A stretch of DNA of 32,348 nucleotides, taken from the IMG/VR virus record IMGVR_UViG_2537562189_000010. One strand, written 5' to 3'. Source of the DNA: a virus. Its lineage: Duplodnaviria > Heunggongvirae > Uroviricota > Caudoviricetes. Positions 8,040 to 31,286 of this stretch are shown piece by piece (the stretch's first letter is position 1; every line of letters begins with the position of its first letter). A model generated the notes under the pieces. It saw only the letters and a list, made by a program, of their open reading frames with translations, was not told where the DNA came from and searched no databases. The translations under genes were made by a program, and so were the position numbers.

Positions 8040-8388
8040 AGTTCACTCTGGTGTTTATGCGTCCAAAATCCTGTGTCTCTGCCGTCACATGCAGCCTGCC
8101 CGGTGCCTCTTCGTTAATGAACACCGTCCCCGGAACCAGCCGTTCATCATCCTCAACCAGGAGGATAAGCCGGGTAATGATGTCGCTGCGCAGCGTCGGG
8201 CTGCGTTCGCCGATAAGCAGGGCGGCGATCCCGCTTTCGATAATGCTGTGCACCACGTCCTGGCCGATGCTGACCCGGTTATCACATCGCTGTGGCTCGT
8301 TGCCGCTGTTCAGCGTAAAACTGCCGTCAGTGATAAGCAGGTCGATGTAAAGCGATGGCGTGTTCATCCCGCGTAAAGCTCCGTCCAT
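8017..8388 (-). CDS. small baseplate protein (gpW / gp25-like)
   Basis: 123 aa, immediately after the tape measure and overlapping the J-like gene; synteny-based call. Confidence 0.45.
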   Translation of the reverse strand: MDGALRGMNTPSLYIDLLITDGSFTLNSGNEPQRCDNRVSIGQDVVHSIIESGIAALLIGERSPTLRSDIITRLILLVEDDERLVPGTVFINEEAPGRLHVTAETQDFGRINTRVNYERETGR

Positions 8389-10550
8389 TCATCCAGTTGC
8401 CCCGGCGTCATCGGGCTCTGCGTGTTGATTGTCAGATTGCCGAACGTCCGGCTGTTGTCGATACGGGTTGAGGTGTCCGTGCGTATCTGGTTGCGTATGC
8501 CTCCGGGTGGCAGCTCTGCGCTGATGCGGTTGCCTGCCAGTGCCGGGACGGCGGTTTCTGCAATCTGCGGAGGTACGGTGCTGCCTGTTGCGCCCCGCGT
8601 CATGGTGTTCACCTGCTCCGTGGGCTTCATGTCGATACTGATACCGGGGATTTTGTTCAGCTTTTCCGCAAGCCAGTTCCACGTCCGGTTAAACGAGTTT
8701 TTAATGACGTTCCATAAGTCCCCGAAGACGTTACCGATGATCCCCGCCATTTTCCGGAAGGATTCGACCGGGGCAGTCGGGTCAAATGCAGCCACCACGT
8801 CCTGCCACCCTCTGATAACGATGGCGAAGATGTCGACCAGGGTTCTGATCACGCTGATAACCACCTCCAGCGCGGGGGATATCAGGCTTACCGCTGCGGC
8901 CACCACGCGACCGCATGTTTCCCCGGCACGGGTGACGCTGTTCATCTGCCCCGTGGTCAGCTGAACCGGTGTGAACAGATCAGTGAAGGCGCCGAACAGG
9001 GTTTTTATGCCCTGCCATACCGGGGCCAGCGCACGGGCAATTTCACCGAACGCGGCAGTCACCGGGCTCATGGCGTCCAGTGCGCCGGTAAAACCATCAA
9101 TAAAGCCGCGAATAAAGGCTTTGATGGGCTGCCAGAACTTAATGGCCACCACCACCAGAGCGGCGATGGCGGCGGCAACCAGGAGGACCGGGGCGCTCAT
9201 GGTCAGAAACGACACGCCCGCCAGACGCGCGGCAAGACTGGTGGCAATGATGGCGCTGCGTACTTTTGTGAGTGCGAGCGTGTACAGACTCCAGACTGCC
9301 CTGGCGCCCTTTATGATGGCCTTATGGCCTTCCATGATGAAGCTGAACACACCCAGCACGATGTTCGTGACCGCACCGGCTGCGCCCAGCGCCAGCATGG
9401 TCAGCGTGATGTAACCCAGCCAGCGGGCGATGTTCGGGAACATGTTCAGCCAGCGCACGAACGTCGCGCCGATATCGGCAAAACGGCCAGCCAGTGGTGC
9501 GAGAATGGGGTAGAGGGCGTTACCGATGGCGGCCCGGATGTTGTAGAAGGAGGCCACAAGGCGGTCCCACGGGTCGGTCATGGCTTCCGCCATTTCCGTG
9601 GCACGCTTCATGCCGTCATTACGCCCCAGCGCTGATATGCTCCGGTTAAGCATTTCCTGCTGTCCCCAGAGTTTTTTAATCACGTCCGCGCCACTGCCGA
9701 AGGCGTCATCCAGCGCCTGTTGTGCCGCCACGTTGCCCTCGATGTTCCTGCCGAACCTCGCCTGCAGACGGTCGAGGATGTCACCCATGGGTAAAATCTT
9801 CCCGGTGGCATCGACAAAACTCATCCCCATTTTTTGTGCGGCAGCGGGGGCACTGCGCAGGAACTCCTCATAGATGCCTGATGCCTCGGTACCCATGGTC
9901 CGTGACAGGGTGCCCAGTATGGCAAACTGCTCTGCCATGCTGACGCCAAAATCCGCGCCCGCGTTTTTGGTGCCCTCAATAAGCTCCTGCATGGTGCTCA
10001 TTTCCACGCCGAACTGCTGAACCATCCACGCGGTTTTACCTGCCAGATCTTCAGCAAACCCCACGGCACCCATGGCAGAAAACTCACTGCGGAAACGGGC
10101 ACCCATGGCGGCAAGGTAGCCGCTCGCCTCTTCGCTGCTGACGCGGGCAGCCACAGCCAGGGTGCTGGTTGCTGCCGTCACACGGGGTAAATCCCCGTCG
10201 CTCAGCCCGTCCAGTGCGCCGCGAATATGCCATGCGGAACGGATGATCTCCGTGGAGGACTGACCGAATGCGGTCCCCAGTTTCATGGCCTGCGTGGTGA
10301 GGGCGGTCAGCGCCTGCGCCCCGACGCCTTTGGCCTCAAGCTCGCCCAGCGCCTTCTGCATCTCCCACGCCGGATCCATCGCGGCGCGGATACCTTCAGC
10401 CACGCCCCACAGTCCGGCCACACCCACACCGATACGCGCGAACGCGCCCTGCGAGCGTTCGGCGAATCCCGTCACGGATTCCTGAACCTGCCGCAGCGGG
10501 CGGGTAAGCTGGTCTGTCAGATTGATAATGAAATCCAGCTGGCTGGCCAT
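8364..10550 (-). CDS. tail tape measure protein
   Basis: 728 aa, Ala/Gly-rich with internal hydrophobic stretches (ITLTMLALGAAGAVTNIVLGVF..., VSFLTMSAPVLLVAAAIAALVVVAI...); preceded by a chaperone gene with a frameshift site. Confidence 0.7.
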   Translation of the reverse strand: MASQLDFIINLTDQLTRPLRQVQESVTGFAERSQGAFARIGVGVAGLWGVAEGIRAAMDPAWEMQKALGELEAKGVGAQALTALTTQAMKLGTAFGQSSTEIIRSAWHIRGALDGLSDGDLPRVTAATSTLAVAARVSSEEASGYLAAMGARFRSEFSAMGAVGFAEDLAGKTAWMVQQFGVEMSTMQELIEGTKNAGADFGVSMAEQFAILGTLSRTMGTEASGIYEEFLRSAPAAAQKMGMSFVDATGKILPMGDILDRLQARFGRNIEGNVAAQQALDDAFGSGADVIKKLWGQQEMLNRSISALGRNDGMKRATEMAEAMTDPWDRLVASFYNIRAAIGNALYPILAPLAGRFADIGATFVRWLNMFPNIARWLGYITLTMLALGAAGAVTNIVLGVFSFIMEGHKAIIKGARAVWSLYTLALTKVRSAIIATSLAARLAGVSFLTMSAPVLLVAAAIAALVVVAIKFWQPIKAFIRGFIDGFTGALDAMSPVTAAFGEIARALAPVWQGIKTLFGAFTDLFTPVQLTTGQMNSVTRAGETCGRVVAAAVSLISPALEVVISVIRTLVDIFAIVIRGWQDVVAAFDPTAPVESFRKMAGIIGNVFGDLWNVIKNSFNRTWNWLAEKLNKIPGISIDMKPTEQVNTMTRGATGSTVPPQIAETAVPALAGNRISAELPPGGIRNQIRTDTSTRIDNSRTFGNLTINTQSPMTPGQLDEWTELYAG

Positions 10551-23192: not shown

Positions 23193-23593
23193 GGTGTGTT
23201 CCTTCTGTTGGCGGTTGAATGCACATAGCGGGCAATTGCCGCTTTGCGGTTAATTGTGACCAGTGTTCTGGTGAGTTCTGCGTTGTGTTTGTGTGCCTGC
23301 TCTTCGTGGTACTGCCGCATGATTTTTCCGGCAGGCGTGAGCGGCTCCGGCTCCCCGTGCGGACGGCGCGGACGAACGGCGACAAGCCAGCTGCGGTTAG
23401 TGCTGTCCGGTCGTCCGTTGAGTATGTCGGTGATGATGGCCGTGGTGGTGCGATCGGGACTGACGACTGTGATTTCCAGCTCATCGCCGGGTTGTGGTCC
23501 CGTGGCAATGTTGTTCAGGGTCAGTAAGGGCGTGCGCTGGCGCATCATTTCGTCAAAGCGCTGGCGCTGCATGGCGCAATAAAAGCGGGTCAT
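23189..23593 (-). CDS. hypothetical protein, 134 aa, translationally coupled to the replication gene
   Basis: Start codon overlaps the stop of the replication gene (ATGA); function unknown. Confidence 0.45.
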   Translation of the reverse strand: MTRFYCAMQRQRFDEMMRQRTPLLTLNNIATGPQPGDELEITVVSPDRTTTAIITDILNGRPDSTNRSWLVAVRPRRPHGEPEPLTPAGKIMRQYHEEQAHKHNAELTRTLVTINRKAAIARYVHSTANRRNTP

Positions 23594-26109
23594 TGTGGCG
23601 CCTCCGTATTCGGTGCGGGGGTGATATCAATGCGGCGGGTGCTGTCGTTCCAGTGCGCGGTGCGCCCGTCAGCCAGGCGCACGCGGGCACCGTGCCGGAC
23701 GGAAACGACGGCGCTTTCATGCAGCTGCACGCCCAGCGCATCAAGCTCGCGGGTGATTTGTGCGGTGATGTGTGGCTCAGCGGTCAGTGCGACACTCACG
23801 CGAACGCCGTCAGCGGGCGCACTGATGCCGCCGTTTTTCACGGTTTCCGTGTCAGGTGGCGGGTTTTTCAGCTGCCTGGTGAGTTGTTTTCGCTCTGTGG
23901 GGGTCAGTGACCTTAACCATTCACCCAAATCACCTTCAGGCAGGGTAAGTCGCTGCTCCCTGCGTTCGTCCGGCTGCCTTTCTGGCGGGTCGTTTATGGT
24001 CAGATTCTGGTCAGGGGGACAGTTATTGCCACGAGTCCAAGGTGCGGCAAAGCCGCACTCAACGTCAAAACCCTCGTCCGTGCGGTCTTCGTTTTCCGGC
24101 TTACGTCTGACCAGTTTCCAGGTGTCCGGGTGGGTGCATATGGTGTAGCGCTCCCCGAGTGACGGGGCGCGGACGCCGTAAATACGTTGCGGGAATTCGC
24201 CGTAGTCGTTGGCCTCTTCGGCAGTTTCGTATGCGGTGCGGACCAGGTACGTGTTGCGGGGAATGAGCACACCACCCTGGCGGGTGATATAGGTGGCAAA
24301 ACATCCCACGTCGGCGGCGGCCAGTATGGCGTCAATGTCGTCATGGTCCAGACGCTGCGGGGCAGCCGGGTTACGGGCCATCTGCCCGGCAAGGCGGCGG
24401 AGTTCGCGCCATACCTGGCGGGGCGGGATACCGAAGAACTGGAACTGGCGGATGCGGTGAAGGGCAGCCCAGCCGATGGCGTTCTCCACGGTTTCGGCCA
24501 TGGTTTTGCCTGATTCCTTATCGACGTAAGGTTTGCCGGTTTTCGGGTCATTCCCCATGAAGGCGCTGGCGTCCAGGTTCTTACCGATATAGGTCGCGAT
24601 ATAGCTCGCCGGTGTGCCTTTTGCCGGGTCGATTTTTTCGCATTTAAAACGCGGGGAGATATCATCACCCAGCTCTGCGCGGTCCTCCCTGATGGCGGCG
24701 TTGCGCATGATTTCAGTGATACGGGCTTCGTTTTCCGGGCTGGTGAATACCAGCATGTGCCAGTGCGGTGTACCGTCGTGGTGGGGCTCCACTGTGCGCA
24801 CGCCGTACCAGCCCAGCCCGGCCTTGTTGATGGCCCTGCGGACGGCGGCGAAAAAGCGGTAAACCAGATAATCACTGGCATCACGTACCGTTGCTCCGCA
24901 GTATTTCGGGTTCAGGCTGCCGTCATCGTTCACGCTGTGAAAACGGGAAGGGGCTGTGACGGTGACGAAAAACGCCAGGTCGCCGCGTGCTTCGGCGACC
25001 TGCTCCATTCCCCGGACGCAGGCCATCATCTCGTTACGGCGGTTACGCGGATTAGAGAGACCTGCCCAGTAGATATCCTCAAGGCTGAACCGTTCTCCTT
25101 CTTCGTTCTCGATGTCCCAGGCCTTCAGAAAATCGCGGGTGCGCTGGCGTTTTTCGCGCCAGTCCAGTAACGCTTCATGGCTGATATATACCGACGTCTT
25201 ACGTGACACCAGGCCTGCGGCGCGTAACAGCTCTTCACGCCAGATGTCCCGGAGGTGTCTTAACTGACTGTTCCACCATGTCGCACAGGAAAGGCGCATG
25301 ACCGCACCCGGCACCTGTTCCGGGTCGGGGGCGGTGCGGCGGTCGGGCCTGATTTCCAGCGACGGCCAGCAGGGTGGCGTGATACCCAGTTTTAACGCCA
25401 TGTGTGCCAGTGGCTGGTAGGTCAGTAACCAGGTGAACAGGTCATCGTCACCCCTGCCGGTCTTTTCGATGACCTCATCACATGCGCGCTCCAGTGCGGT
25501 GGAAAACGCGGTGGCGGTCAGGGTGGCAAGGCGCTGGATTTCGTCACGGCTCAGCTGCGGCAGCATAAGCAGTTCATCCAGCCGTTCGCGGGCGGCGGTG
25601 GCCTTAAAGGCCGGGGTGGCAAAGCGTTCATTCACACGGGCGATACGTTTCAGGCGGGCACGCAGCCCGTGACGAACGAAGTTATCCGCCGCGTATGCGC
25701 TGTTGTTCTTAAGCCCTTCCCGGCGTGCGCTCTCCTGTTTGCGGCTCAGGCGTGCCAGGTCCCGGATGAGCGGACCGGCAAGAAACGGCGGCAGGGCGCG
25801 CAGCTCCGCCATGGCTTCAGATACCAGTGTGGGCGGATTTTCGCGTTTGTGTCGCGCCAGTTTTTCCAGTCTGATCCGACGCTCTTCGTCGTGGTAAAGA
25901 TGCGAATTAATTCGCTTCCCTTCGTCTGTGGTTGTCAGAAAGGCGACGGTTTCTTCATCCAGTCTGGCGTCAGTGCGAATGTCCTCGTTGATGTAGCTCT
26001 GAATGGCCTGGCGTAATGCAGTTGGCTGTGCCCTGCCGAACGTTTCAGGATCGATAACCGGCAGCGGGGCGTTCCACGGGTACGCCAGTTGTGCGTTATG
26101 GTCGCTCAT
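23590..26109 (-). CDS. A: rolling-circle replication initiator, HUH endonuclease (P2 gpA-like)
   Basis: About 839 aa from the first ATG (ORF track 23590..26118); contains ...GTPHWHMLVF..., the HUH metal-binding motif of P2 A / phiX174 A-type initiators. Confidence 0.85.
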   Translation of the reverse strand: MSDHNAQLAYPWNAPLPVIDPETFGRAQPTALRQAIQSYINEDIRTDARLDEETVAFLTTTDEGKRINSHLYHDEERRIRLEKLARHKRENPPTLVSEAMAELRALPPFLAGPLIRDLARLSRKQESARREGLKNNSAYAADNFVRHGLRARLKRIARVNERFATPAFKATAARERLDELLMLPQLSRDEIQRLATLTATAFSTALERACDEVIEKTGRGDDDLFTWLLTYQPLAHMALKLGITPPCWPSLEIRPDRRTAPDPEQVPGAVMRLSCATWWNSQLRHLRDIWREELLRAAGLVSRKTSVYISHEALLDWREKRQRTRDFLKAWDIENEEGERFSLEDIYWAGLSNPRNRRNEMMACVRGMEQVAEARGDLAFFVTVTAPSRFHSVNDDGSLNPKYCGATVRDASDYLVYRFFAAVRRAINKAGLGWYGVRTVEPHHDGTPHWHMLVFTSPENEARITEIMRNAAIREDRAELGDDISPRFKCEKIDPAKGTPASYIATYIGKNLDASAFMGNDPKTGKPYVDKESGKTMAETVENAIGWAALHRIRQFQFFGIPPRQVWRELRRLAGQMARNPAAPQRLDHDDIDAILAAADVGCFATYITRQGGVLIPRNTYLVRTAYETAEEANDYGEFPQRIYGVRAPSLGERYTICTHPDTWKLVRRKPENEDRTDEGFDVECGFAAPWTRGNNCPPDQNLTINDPPERQPDERREQRLTLPEGDLGEWLRSLTPTERKQLTRQLKNPPPDTETVKNGGISAPADGVRVSVALTAEPHITAQITRELDALGVQLHESAVVSVRHGARVRLADGRTAHWNDSTRRIDITPAPNTEAPQ

Positions 26110-26522
26110 GCGTCGCACTCCCCGGCAGTTGCCGCCTGAAACGCCGCGCGGTACAGCACGAGAAGGCGCTGGTATTCACCGATAAAGTCTTCTGCGGTGT
26201 ATATGCCTTTCACGGCCACGCTGTGCGTTGTCATTTCCAGAACCAGCGCCATTTCTGACGACGACCAGCTGATGGCGGTGCTGTCGGTTCCGTTGATGTG
26301 AAATAAACCAAAGCCATCACCATCGCCTTTTACGTCCACGCGGTAACGGTCGTCAACGGTGAAGGAGAAATCCCCGTATGTGGTGACGCGTCCGGCGGCC
26401 TGTTTACAGGCGCGGCGGTAATAGTCGTGCCAGTCGTTCAGGCGGGAAGCCAGCCGGGGATCCACTGCCCACATCCAGTTAAAAAAATCCTGAATATCTG
26501 AAAGTCCCTTAACGCTCTTCAT
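26106..26522 (-). CDS. hypothetical protein, 138 aa, directly upstream of and coupled to the replication gene
   Basis: ATG preceded by GGAGG; its stop overlaps the replication gene ATG; its ribosome-binding site lies at the boundary of the tandem repeat. Confidence 0.5.
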   Translation of the reverse strand: MKSVKGLSDIQDFFNWMWAVDPRLASRLNDWHDYYRRACKQAAGRVTTYGDFSFTVDDRYRVDVKGDGDGFGLFHINGTDSTAISWSSSEMALVLEMTTHSVAVKGIYTAEDFIGEYQRLLVLYRAAFQAATAGECDA

Positions 26523-26590
26523 GAGAACCTCCGGTAACAGACGTGCGGAAGCCTCCCGCGCACGTGTGCGGGATGGCTTCAGGATGTTGT

Positions 26591-26818
26591 TTAGTGGTGG
26601 TGTTGCTGGTTGATAAGGTCCTGCAGTTCTGCCAGGTCTTCGGCCAGATAGCTGAAGACTGCCGCGTAATACCCGGCAGCGATACCGTCGTTAAGTCGGT
26701 GTAATACGTTTGACTGCATGATGAAGGAGACAGATGCAGCCCGATGGAGTCTGCGGTTGATTTCTGTGCGGATGTGAAGACGCTCAGCGCGGGCGCGCTG
26801 TTGTTTGCGGTTTGCCAT
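26591..26818 (-). CDS. 75-aa Arg-rich protein, copy 1 (unknown function; candidate RNA-controlled effector)
   Basis: Identical in protein sequence to copy 2 despite synonymous nucleotide changes; AAGAGG Shine-Dalgarno; basic N-terminus, acidic C-terminus ending in HHH. Confidence 0.7.
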   Translation of the reverse strand: MANRKQQRARAERLHIRTEINRRLHRAASVSFIMQSNVLHRLNDGIAAGYYAAVFSYLAEDLAELQDLINQQHHH

Positions 26819-27132
26819 GGTGTTTGGCCTCTTGTAGTAAGTTGTGAAAACTCACCAACCCGAGGCGGTAATCTCAGGGTGGCGAGACGTACAGGGTTAC
26901 CACAACCGGCTACAAGAGATCCCGGCCCGACCGAAGTCGGCCCCGTACGCCCCGCCATAATTCTGACGCAAAAAAGACGTGGCGATACAGTACGCACAAA
27001 AAAACCGCTGGCGCGGTTGTGCGCTCTTGTAGTCGGCGGGGTGGTAATCCCGGCACCCGTTTTATGAGGTGCGGGAAAACTGTAACCCGACCAGGCGAAC
27101 GCTGGCAAGCGGTTTTTTTGTGTGTGCATGGA
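26819..27132 (-). ncRNA. structured leader / antisense-type regulatory RNA region, copy 1 (c4/CI-like architecture)
   Basis: CTCTTGTAG (about 26829-26837) and again (about 27024-27032) are each the reverse complement of CTACAAGAG (about 26911-26919); GGTAA/TTACC inner pairing; minus-strand hairpin plus T7 terminator; UUCG-loop hairpin. Confidence 0.5.
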
Positions 27133-27202
27133 GAACGAACCTCCGGTAACAGACGTGCGGAAGCCTCCCGCGCACGGGTGCGGGATGGCTTCAGGATGTT
27201 GT

Positions 27203-27430
27203 TTAGTGGTGGTGTTGCTGGTTGATAAGGTCCTGCAGTTCTGCCAGGTCTTCGGCCAGATAGCTGAAGACTGCCGCGTAATACCCGGCAGCGATACCGT
27301 CGTTAAGTCGGTGTAATACGTTTGACTGCATGATGAAGGAGACAGATGCAGCCCGATGGAGTCTGCGGTTGATTTCAGTCCGGATGTGAAGACGCTCAGC
27401 GCGGGCGCGCTGTTGCTTGCGGTTTGCCAT
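27203..27430 (-). CDS. 75-aa Arg-rich protein, copy 2
   Basis: Same protein as copy 1; the only nucleotide differences are AAA/AAG (Lys), CGC/CGG (Arg) and ACA/ACT (Thr). Confidence 0.7.
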   Translation of the reverse strand: MANRKQQRARAERLHIRTEINRRLHRAASVSFIMQSNVLHRLNDGIAAGYYAAVFSYLAEDLAELQDLINQQHHH

Positions 27431-27745
27431 GGTGTGGCCTCTTGTGTAGTAAGTTTTGAAAACTCACCATCCAGAGGTTGCAATTCTGGGTGGTGAGACG
27501 TACAGGGTTGCAACCACCGGCTACACAAGACCCCGGCCCGACCGAAGTCGGCCCTGTACGCCCCACCATAATTCTGACGCGAAAAAGATGTGACGATGCG
27601 GTACGCACAAAAAAACCGCTGGCGCGGTTGTGCGCTTGTGTAGTCAGCGGGGGTTGCAATCCCGGCACCCGTTTTATGAGGTGCGGGAAAACTGTAACCC
27701 GACCAGGCGAACGCTGGCAAGCGGTTTTTTTGTGTGTGCATGTTC
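27431..27745 (-). ncRNA. structured leader / antisense-type regulatory RNA region, copy 2
   Basis: Segments CTTGTGTAG...GGTTGCAAT (about 27441-27485 and 27635-27660) are both complementary to GGTTGCAACC...CTACACAAG (about 27507-27529); the Shine-Dalgarno of the ORF lies inside the downstream segment; terminator (about 27609-27635) and UUCG hairpin (about 27535-27554) on the minus strand. Confidence 0.5.
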
Positions 27746-30879: not shown

Positions 30880-30986
30880 CTGGTATCCTCCGTTATTGGC
30901 CCCTTTTTCGAATAGGGACCATGTAGAACCAATTGCGACTATTCTTGTGTTGCTATACACAAAAATTATTGGAGATTAGAAAAATT
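30880..30986. promoter_or_regulatory. immunity switch region between the divergent cox-like and C-like genes
   Basis: 107-bp AT-rich spacer; direct repeat AAAAATTAT (about 30961 and 30980); inverted repeat GAATAG...CTATTC (about 30911-30945). Promoter boxes not resolved. Confidence 0.45.
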
Positions 30987-31286
30987 ATGTCAATACCGCA
31001 AAATGAGAAATTAAAACTTATCAGAGAGTCCGAACGGATGAAAATGAAGGAACTATCTGATTTAATTGGAATTAATTACTATACATATCATGGCTATGAA
31101 AGTGGGAAATCTAAGATGCCTCTTGATTTTGGGATCCTTCTTTTGCGGCACGCTCGTTTCCGTAAATACCGTGACTGGTTTTTGTTCGATGAGGTCGAAC
31201 CAAAGGCCGGGCAGGTGGTACCGGCTCTCGCACACATTGGGCAAAGCGAAGCGGAATCATCCCACTCCGGCAAGAAGACTGGTTAA
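30987..31286 (+). CDS. C: immunity repressor (P2 C-like), 99 aa
   Basis: Same length as P2 C; central ...YESGKS... and C-terminal ...PALAHIGQSEAESSHSGKKTG resemble P2 C as recalled; upstream of and co-directional with int. Confidence 0.7.
   Translation: MSIPQNEKLKLIRESERMKMKELSDLIGINYYTYHGYESGKSKMPLDFGILLLRHARFRKYRDWFLFDEVEPKAGQVVPALAHIGQSEAESSHSGKKTG

Follow-up and report, generated by a model that had tools for sequence, protein, structure and literature searches.

What is the function of the minus-strand segment at positions 27428-27497 of the virus record IMGVR_UViG_2537562189_000010, in which the ribosome-binding site of an open reading frame (ORF) of 75 amino acids (aa) is located next to a conspicuous hairpin? 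From the letters of the DNA alone, an original prediction had proposed that a functional RNA with three complementary segments is encoded here and acts by termination and/or translational block. We analyzed the complete 32-kb stretch of DNA (32,348 nucleotides (nt), in the following called the window), and all features of the locus are read on its minus strand. The segment is very probably the downstream a2/b2 ('seqC') target of a C4/CI-type immunity antisense RNA in the early operon of a P2-like Escherichia coli prophage. The RNA system is of a kind that is already known from the phages P1 and P4 (C4/CI), and it is the P2-like context together with a tandem arrangement of two modules with two specificities that is unusual. 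Thus, raw sequence alone has led back to a target site that belongs to a classic antisense immunity system, the mechanism of which is not new.

RNA family matches and anatomy of the locus

A scan of the window with Rfam at the curated thresholds gave four matches, every one of them on the minus strand. Two belong to the C4 family (RF01695, threshold 45) with 78.0 bits in the first and 80.4 bits in the second copy of the module, both covering model positions 1-87 of 87, and the other two to the isrK family (RF01394, threshold 50) with 59.6 and 65.0 bits, respectively (Table 1). The same two models match phage P4 in its CI RNA (8420-8507, 74.9 bits) and its seqA leader (8615-8692, 60.8 bits), and the isrK and C4 families of Rfam have been described to correspond to seqA and CI of P4 (PMC3632133, PMC10111431). 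Furthermore, the C4 model matches phage P1 (68.8 bits), an Stx2 phage, phage 1720a-02 and a Citrobacter P2-like phage. For the upstream targets a separate Rfam family exists, RF03163 (c4-a1b1), which matches P1 (L074 48217-48269); the upstream targets of the window fall under the isrK model.

Homologues of the 75-aa protein are encoded in 66 loci, from which we obtained 46 distinct leaders, and 31 distinct sequences make up the alignment A2 that was used for the comparisons below. Throughout these 31 relatives the C4 cloverleaf is preserved: all 837 cells of its 27 pairs are standard pairs, compared with 34-46% in slid controls, and a single pair (16-87; CG in 13, UA in 12 and UG in 6 sequences) is compensated. 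The C4 of copy 1 (fold z = -5.5) consists of a closing stem of 17 base pairs (bp), a UUCG hairpin, a second hairpin with the segment b' in its 12-nt loop and the segment a' in a junction strand. The UUCG-closed stem, which had been placed in the leader by the original prediction, has the sequence CCGAC-UUCG-GUCGG. CCACC follows the acceptor-like stem, and the annotated 3' end of the P1 C4 shows the same; RNase P processing itself is suggested by analogy only. The ends of the mature RNA were predicted by alignment to the annotated 77-nt C4 of P1.

Upstream of C4 lies the isrK-type leader (fold z = -2.8 in module 1), which displays a1 (AUUGCAACC) by its hairpin 2, contains b1 (CUACACAAG) in linear form and ends with a stem and seven U. 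This intrinsic terminator had been expected between the upstream and the central segment, and a terminator scan found it there independently of Rfam. Two promoter-like sites (TTGCCA-18-TACAGT), each ending 7 nt ahead of its leader, were seen in the region where 0.9 are expected, and they are matches to the consensus only. The site of module 1 is kept in the 46 related leaders and has the position of the annotated P1c4 promoter of P1, and the P4 leader is likewise preceded by a TTGCCT/TATAGT site. The family matches and this anatomy are direct support for the assignment, and so are the complementarity with its covariation and the homology of the 75-aa ORF to the epsilon protein of P4, which are described next.

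Complementarity and covariation

The 9-mer CUACACAAG occurs three times in the window, twice in direct orientation (27449-27441 and 27643-27635) and once as the reverse complement (27529-27521). Its chance expectation is 0.14, and none of 100 shuffles reached three occurrences. The Shine-Dalgarno sequence AAGAGG lies 7 nt ahead of the ATG, as predicted, and is overlapped by the outer segment, which can pair with the central one: extended by one base, the b'-b2 duplex of copy 1 comprises 10 bp (UCUUGUGUAG : CUACACAAGA) and covers the AAGA of AAGAGG. The remaining helices of copy 1 have 9 bp (b'-b1), 8 bp (a'-a2) and 8 bp (a'-a1). In copy 2 the corresponding lengths are 10, 9, 7 and 7 bp, and its b'-b2 duplex covers the whole AAGAGG including one G.U pair, 9 nt from the ATG.

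Among the related leaders the scaffold is almost invariant and short segments (four or six) vary in blocks, with eight types of a' and 15 types of b' being found in 25 combinations in the 46 leaders. All 46 retain the cognate helices, with at least 8 bp (mean 10.2) for b'-b2 and at least 7 bp for a'-a2, while non-cognate combinations reach means of 5.7 and 4.7 bp, respectively. In alignment A2 the 18 proposed pairs between the C4 loops and a2/b2 are 94.3% paired (slid controls at most 52%) and 10 of them are altered on both sides (131 cells). The covariation score was 0.642 compared to 0.131 in shuffles, none of 500 shuffles being as good. This is strong comparative support, drawn from sequence, for an interaction of C4 with a2 and b2, in which covariation does not distinguish pairing in cis from pairing in trans. 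As a data set on covariation in an RNA-RNA interaction, the natural variants are very clean. Between the two copies of the window, duplex energies are uninformative on cross-immunity, as scaffold bases common to both inflate the non-cognate values; the cognate helices are uninterrupted and the cross pairs are interrupted.

The original prediction had also pointed to a self-complementary core UUGCAA in the inner segment, as it is known from kissing-loop contacts. This core is real (GGUUGCAACC, segment a'), but the segment is just one of eight variants among the relatives, and the palindrome looks incidental because a core of this kind is absent from all other variants listed. The term kissing loop is also only loosely apt: a2 is indeed located in a loop, but its partner a' in C4 is part of a junction strand and not of a hairpin loop.

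In three leaders (L022, L008 and L032) a1, and in L022 also b1, is mismatched to the C4 of the same leader, whereas a2 and b2 match. By their sequences these leaders look like recombinants, and the 'orphan' isrK-type RNA produced from them could titrate the C4 of another phage.

Table 1: Positions of the elements of both modules and of the genes downstream of them in the window.
Feature	Position	Strand	Details and basis
Tandem unit 1	27131..27742	-	copy alignment, period 612 bp
Promoter-like site, TTGCCA-18-TACAGT	27691..27720	-	ends 7 nt ahead of leader RNA start; consensus match
isrK/seqA-type leader	27607..27684	-	Rfam RF01394 match 27684-27609; hairpin 1, hairpin 2 with a1 (27660-27652), linear b1 (27643-27635), terminator (stem 27629-27614 + U7)
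C4/CI-type antisense RNA	27486..27573	-	Rfam RF01695; predicted mature 27567-27489; UUCG hairpin 27551-27538; b' UCUUGUGUAG 27530-27521; a' GGUUGCAACC 27515-27506
a2 hairpin	27459..27497	-	arms 27497-27485 / 27475-27463, loop a2 27484-27476, UUUU 27462-27459
b2 target and translation start	27428..27449	-	b2 CUACACAAGA 27449-27440; Shine-Dalgarno AAGAGG 27443-27438; 7-nt spacer CCACACC; ATG 27430-27428; sequence, covariation
75-aa ORF copy 1, P4 epsilon homologue	27203..27430	-	Pfam PF25738, P4 epsilon alignment
Module 2	26525..27130	-	second tandem copy, other specificity
Module 2 promoter-like site	27108-27079	-	
Module 2 isrK-type leader	27072-26998	-	b1 27032-27024, terminator 27018-27003
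Module 2 C4 RNA	26962-26875	-	b' 26918-26910; predicted mature 26956-26878
Module 2 a2 hairpin	~26886-26851	-	
Module 2 b2	26837-26829	-	Shine-Dalgarno 26833-26828
Module 2 75-aa ORF	26818-26591	-	product identical to copy 1
Downstream genes, same operon	23590..26522	-	138-aa ORF 26522-26106; P2 gpA-type replication endonuclease 26109-23590

Relation to the systems of P1, P4 and Gifsy-1

The GenBank record of P1 lists c4 promoters, a1, b1, the 77-nt C4, a2 four bases past C4, b2, icd and ant in this order, and carries the note 'repression of icd ant translation' on b2, just before icd. The immI region of P1 and P7 (c4-icd-ant) and the locus described here are alike in the order of promoter, a1 in a hairpin loop, b1, terminator, C4, a2, b2 over the Shine-Dalgarno sequence and small ORF as well as in the anti-repressor function. 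Recognition has two parts in both systems, b' being presented by a loop and a' by a junction strand, and in both the a2 hairpin has one strand in common with the C4 closing stem. In the literature, c4 is described to inhibit translation in the region around the ribosome-binding site of the antirepressor mRNA, and heteroimmunity to rest on specificity differences (PMC12197685). In contrast to P1, which is a plasmid prophage, the host element here is a P2-like myovirus prophage, and the first regulated gene is itself a putative P4 epsilon-type anti-repressor, whereas icd followed by ant is regulated in P1. Further differences are the replication gene A downstream, the lack of an evident C1 operator and the tandem arrangement of the module.

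The proposal of a functional minus-strand RNA with three complementary segments that acts by termination and/or translational block is supported because the Rfam C4 and isrK matches, the layout of the P1 record and the natural covariation agree. Going beyond this proposal, the central segment would, by analogy, be part of a discrete and trans-acting RNA and not just a cis element of the leader.

Phage P4, with CI (seqB), seqA and seqC in the PLE leader, resembles the locus in having the same a2 hairpin, a b2 (UUCACAGGA) which overlaps the AGGAGG before the first ORF, and an epsilon gene and a replication gene downstream. Its CI RNA is produced by processing of a primary transcript (PMC4825925). 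However, epsilon is the second gene after CI in P4, ~190 nt past the start codon of the first ORF, whereas the epsilon-like ORF is the direct target here. Moreover, the replication protein is gpA and not the alpha primase, the element has structural genes and is a full helper-type phage, and the scaffold has diverged, the nucleotide profile of the clade of the window missing P4.

The third related system, IsrK-orf45 (STnc1160)-anrP of Gifsy-1, is similar in its isrK leader with a terminator, its processed ~80-nt RNA and its anti-repressor gene. Different from our locus it is found in a lambdoid context, its short IsrK acts as a trans activator and a short ORF in the C4-like region is translationally coupled to anrP, whereas the target ORF is located downstream of C4 here and has its Shine-Dalgarno sequence in b2. 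For Gifsy-1, experiments have shown that the leader can pair in cis with the RNA downstream of it (PMC4825925), and these alternative structures resemble the fold predicted for the 265-nt leader of the window (see below).

Presumed target ORF and proposed mechanism

The 75-aa ORF matches the Pfam family PF25738 ('Derepression protein family') with 29.1 bits and shows 36% identity over 50 aa to P4 epsilon (E = 4e-9), and its homologues are called 'derepression protein' in E. coli RefSeq records. From these similarities it is likely an epsilon-type anti-repressor, an assignment that is putative. A C-type repressor gene is present at 30933-31286, and its inactivation by the 75-aa protein is only putative as well.

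In analogy to P1 and P4, the promoter-like site of each module would be expected to be active in the lysogen. Most transcripts would stop at the U7 terminator, resulting in a short isrK/seqA-type RNA with a1 and b1, and only the read-through RNA would contain C4. Again as in P1 and P4, RNase P would cut at the tRNA-like closing stem of C4, and a ~79-nt RNA would accumulate. This C4 would offer b' in its 12-nt hairpin loop and a' in its junction strand. By pairing its a' with a2, which the hairpin directly behind C4 carries in its loop, and its b' with b2 over the Shine-Dalgarno sequence, C4 would block ribosome initiation on the epsilon-like anti-repressor gene, and the lost translation, probably together with termination, would keep the 138-aa gene and the replication gene A silent. 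In the leader, a1 and b1 would form a second C4 binding site, which might serve for titration or for a feedback on C4 synthesis, and the sequences of a' and b' would set the specificity of immunity. Either the translational block or termination may be the dominant output.

Several points weigh against this model. Its functional steps, namely transcription, RNA processing and repression by a translational block, and likewise the action in trans, the polarity on gene A and the immunity phenotype, are all adopted by analogy. As the relative from Gifsy-1 works partly as an activator via the short IsrK RNA (PMC4825925), the sign of the regulation is not guaranteed. The b'-b2 duplex of copy 1 spans just four of the six Shine-Dalgarno bases, and the Pfam match of the 75-aa ORF is marginal with 29.1 bits against a threshold of 27. 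For the predicted mature C4 of copy 1 the lowest-energy fold calculated with ViennaRNA is not the Rfam cloverleaf but a structure that is 4 kcal/mol more stable than the consensus and pairs UGUAGCC (part of b') with GGUUGCA (part of a'), which could lower the activity of this RNA; copy 2 folds as the consensus. Finally, cis effects could dominate because the minimum-energy structure of the whole 265-nt leader joins a1/b1 to a'/b' of the same molecule and leaves the Shine-Dalgarno sequence unpaired. This modeled structure contains no C4 stem and a complete a2 hairpin.

The a2 hairpin and the C4 closing stem

The 13-bp stem of the original prediction, with one mismatch and the inner segment in its loop, is present as described: CUCACCACCCAGA pairs with UCUGGAUGGUGAG with one C.A mismatch and encloses the loop AUUGCAACC, the fold having -14.5 kcal/mol and z = -4.2. 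Its lower part is, however, an alternative to the closing stem of C4 and not an additional structure. The 5' arm of the hairpin (CUCACCA) doubles as the 3' strand of this 17-bp stem, and because the strand is common to both, the C4 stem and the bottom 7 bp of the hairpin are mutually exclusive. When the RNA is folded from C4 through the U tract, the C4 stem wins with -55.7 versus -53.1 kcal/mol in copy 1 and -58.7 versus -51.8 kcal/mol in copy 2, and the full a2 hairpin accounts for ~1.5% of the ensemble in copy 1 when C4 is folded. The upper stem of 5 bp (copy 1) or 6 bp (copy 2) still shows a2 in the loop in both states.

In the 31 close relatives 86% of the cells of the a2 hairpin are paired and covariation is weak there, with column 87 covarying with its C4 partner and keeping its compatibility with the hairpin just through a G.U wobble. 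Covariation support for the hairpin comes solely from the more distant relatives. The same design with other stem sequences is found in P4 (GCUAUCGCC/GGCGAUAGC), P1 (CCUGC/GCAGG), the Stx2 phage and 1720a-02, and in each of them the loop carries a2 and a U-rich tract follows the hairpin. Judged from these comparisons, the a2 hairpin is a conserved feature of the family, which may serve to display a2, as a switch that is coupled to the folding or processing of C4, or as a weak terminator.

For P4, Briani et al. 2000 reportedly described two terminators, t1 after seqA, which depends on CI, and the atypical t4 between cI and timm. The a2 hairpin with its UUUU resembles a non-canonical terminator and may correspond to this t4. 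A control by termination as in P4 is the rival explanation that survives best, although we consider it rather unlikely as the main output. The a2 hairpin and UUUU would then be a conditional, non-canonical terminator like t4, which would form or not according to whether the C4 closing stem retains the CUCACCACC strand; in addition, C4 bound to a1/b1 would raise termination at U7. The mutual exclusion of both stems fits such a conditional element, and so does the fold of the full leader, where the cis pairing of a1b1 with a'b' frees the strand and the whole hairpin forms. UUUU(C) follows the hairpin in at least 90% of the 31 relatives (A2 columns 120-123; window 27459-27462 and 26847-26850), the distant relatives have U-rich tracts as mentioned (P4 L001 ~8385-8395), and in P4 the CI RNA pairs with seqA and seqC and thereby makes transcription terminate prematurely (PMC4825925, summarising P4 work). 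On the other hand, the a2 hairpin with its UUUU was not reported by the intrinsic-terminator scan, which asks for a GC-rich stem, a loop of 3-8 nt and at least 5 U in the next 8 nt; the element has a 9-nt loop and a tail (UUUUCAAA) with 4 U. In addition, b2 is located downstream of the U tract, leaving no action possible at that site, the C4 stem is favoured at equilibrium by 2.6 (copy 1) and 6.9 kcal/mol (copy 2), and the record of P1 labels a2 and b2 as sites of translational repression.

The 265-nt fold with a1/b1 paired to a'/b' would also fit a purely cis-acting leader, an attenuator in which the central segment pairs within its own transcript and no separate trans RNA exists. Covariation is blind to this distinction, and in Gifsy-1 pairing in cis sets the translational activity, as shown by mutation and native gels (PMC4825925). 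We nevertheless find such a leader improbable, since the central segment is a full-length match to a family with a discrete 77-nt member in P1 and a member in P4 that is also processed (PMC4825925). Moreover, the 17-bp closing stem with its 3' CCACC tail has pairs that are 100% conserved, and both the tandem heterospecific modules and the mix-and-match types of a' and b' make most sense for a diffusible determinant.

Two modules with different specificities

The antisense RNA module is present twice in the window. This duplication was established by alignment of the copies; Tandem Repeats Finder reported none, the period of 612 bp exceeding its limit. The two units are joined at GGAGGTTC-GTTCTC-CATGCAC (~27144-27124), with GTTCTC being a 6-nt filler. 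Their 3' parts of ~290 bp differ by one base, and the differences of the leaders are found mainly in a1, b1, b', a', a2 and b2 and are accompanied by matching changes: UCUUGUGUAG/CUACACAAGA of unit 1 is replaced by UCUCUUGUAG/CUACAAGAG in unit 2, and UUGCAACC by GUGGUAACC. In addition, the C4 stem and the hairpin differ by changes that compensate each other, and the spacer that separates the terminator from C4 contains several substitutions. As for modules that occur singly elsewhere, the one of E. coli O22:H8 strain 154 (L002) has a leader identical to that of unit 2, and the one in an IMG/VR contig (L005) a leader identical to that of unit 1. Because the differences sit in matched specificity segments and each leader exists elsewhere as a single copy, the sequences point to recombination between two heteroimmune relatives and not to a duplication followed by divergence.

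Single occurrence of each leader elsewhere would also be compatible with an assembly artefact, in which two heteroimmune variants, originating from two prophages or a mixed sample, had been stitched together and the real phage has one module, and the ~290-bp parts with their one base difference are prone to a mis-join. No second instance of the tandem was found: the junction pattern gave zero matches in IMG/VR and the JGI metagenomes, matches to a query spanning the junction among the 5,426 complete E. coli genomes were always split into two pieces ~600 bp apart, and 64 related loci scanned with tblastn and a C4 nucleotide profile carry a single copy of the module each. The arrangement is, however, present in the isolate assembly GCA_037352425.1, where the junction lies inside a 131.7-kb contig that is 100% identical to the window over 10.5 kb and may be its own source, and a k-mer mis-join would not produce a specific 6-nt filler. 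Five further assemblies that contain the same gpA are interrupted precisely at the point from which the copies diverge, which fits a repeat and is no proof, as other prophages could also cause such breaks. Taken together we give an artefact a low probability.

Hardly credible is a protein-coding origin of the region with coincidental complementarity, for which a 410-aa open frame through both modules (26509-27741), the RefSeq label 'ash family protein' of ORFs over C4 in related E. coli loci and the 137-aa 'cI gene product' over the CI RNA in an old P4 record could be put forward, since the substitutions are compensatory at the RNA level and clustered in short swapped blocks, the frame, which we judge spurious, crosses the promoter-like site, the terminator and the real 75-aa ORF in another frame, and the P4 cI product is treated as RNA in the literature (PMC4825925, PMC3632133).

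If the tandem arrangement is real and functional, it would be a simple natural example of stacked RNA-based immunities. We tentatively propose, at somewhat less than even chances, a joint reading in which a functional immunity cassette with two specificities, a combinatorial code of two segments, decoy leaders and a coupling of C4 stem and a2 hairpin come together. Two C4 RNAs with different a'/b' 'keys' would then each guard their own epsilon-like copy and, serially, the replication gene, and the prophage would be immune to two immunity groups simultaneously. The a'/b' code (8 x 15 types, 25 combinations in 46 leaders) would be reshuffled by recombination, leaders with a1/b1 unmatched to their own C4 might decoy the C4 of other phages, and the strand common to the C4 stem and the a2 hairpin would couple the maturation of C4 to target exposure or termination.

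The 3' untranslated region after the epsilon-like ORF contains the motif CTGTTACCGGA in both units (26531-26541 and 27145-27155). In L005 and L016 (with close variants in L023 and L028) this motif encodes the C-terminal ELLPD/ELLPN-stop of a DNA-binding gene upstream of the module, and it could be a scar that recombination has left where the module ends. Another related locus, L007 (IMGVR_UViG_2563366990_000002), carries the Illumina adapter AGATCGGAAGAGCACACGTCTGAACTCCAGTCAC inside the epsilon-like ORF and represents a chimeric assembly.

Host element and distribution

The genes downstream of the modules are presumably gated by them. The gpA gene was identified by Pfam Phage_GPA (E = 1.9e-106), the 138-aa ORF shows no homology to ORF151 of P4, and NCBIfam gave no names for the small ORFs. 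The same gene order is found in L002 and in L067-L068. Upstream on the same strand follow early genes back to Cox, with the C repressor and the integrase on the opposite strand, and beyond gpA portal, terminase, scaffold and capsid genes are located, Ogr being also among the P2-like genes. The closest annotated phages are Peduoviridae of the P88/Xuanwuvirus type, and the end with integrase and Cox is 100% identical to an E. coli chromosome. By gene content and similarity the host element is a P2-like (Xuanwuvirus-type) prophage. A P4-like satellite as host element was rejected, as the 842-aa ORF is P2 gpA and not an alpha primase and structural genes are present.

A discussion of this RNA module in P2-like E. 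coli prophages was not found in the open literature that we searched, a 2026 survey of P2-like viruses among it. Module DNA has matches in 1,252 of the 5,426 complete E. coli genomes. The locus documents that P2-like prophages of E. coli carry an RNA immunity module of the P1/P4 type, which would directly control an epsilon-type anti-repressor and is located upstream of gene A. One more of the related loci, L003 (NZ_JBQPOM010000071.1), is a 226-kb contig labelled Vagococcus sp. WN89Y and thereby assigned to a Firmicute, which contains a typical enterobacterial isrK/C4/epsilon module; contamination or mislabelling is the likely reason.

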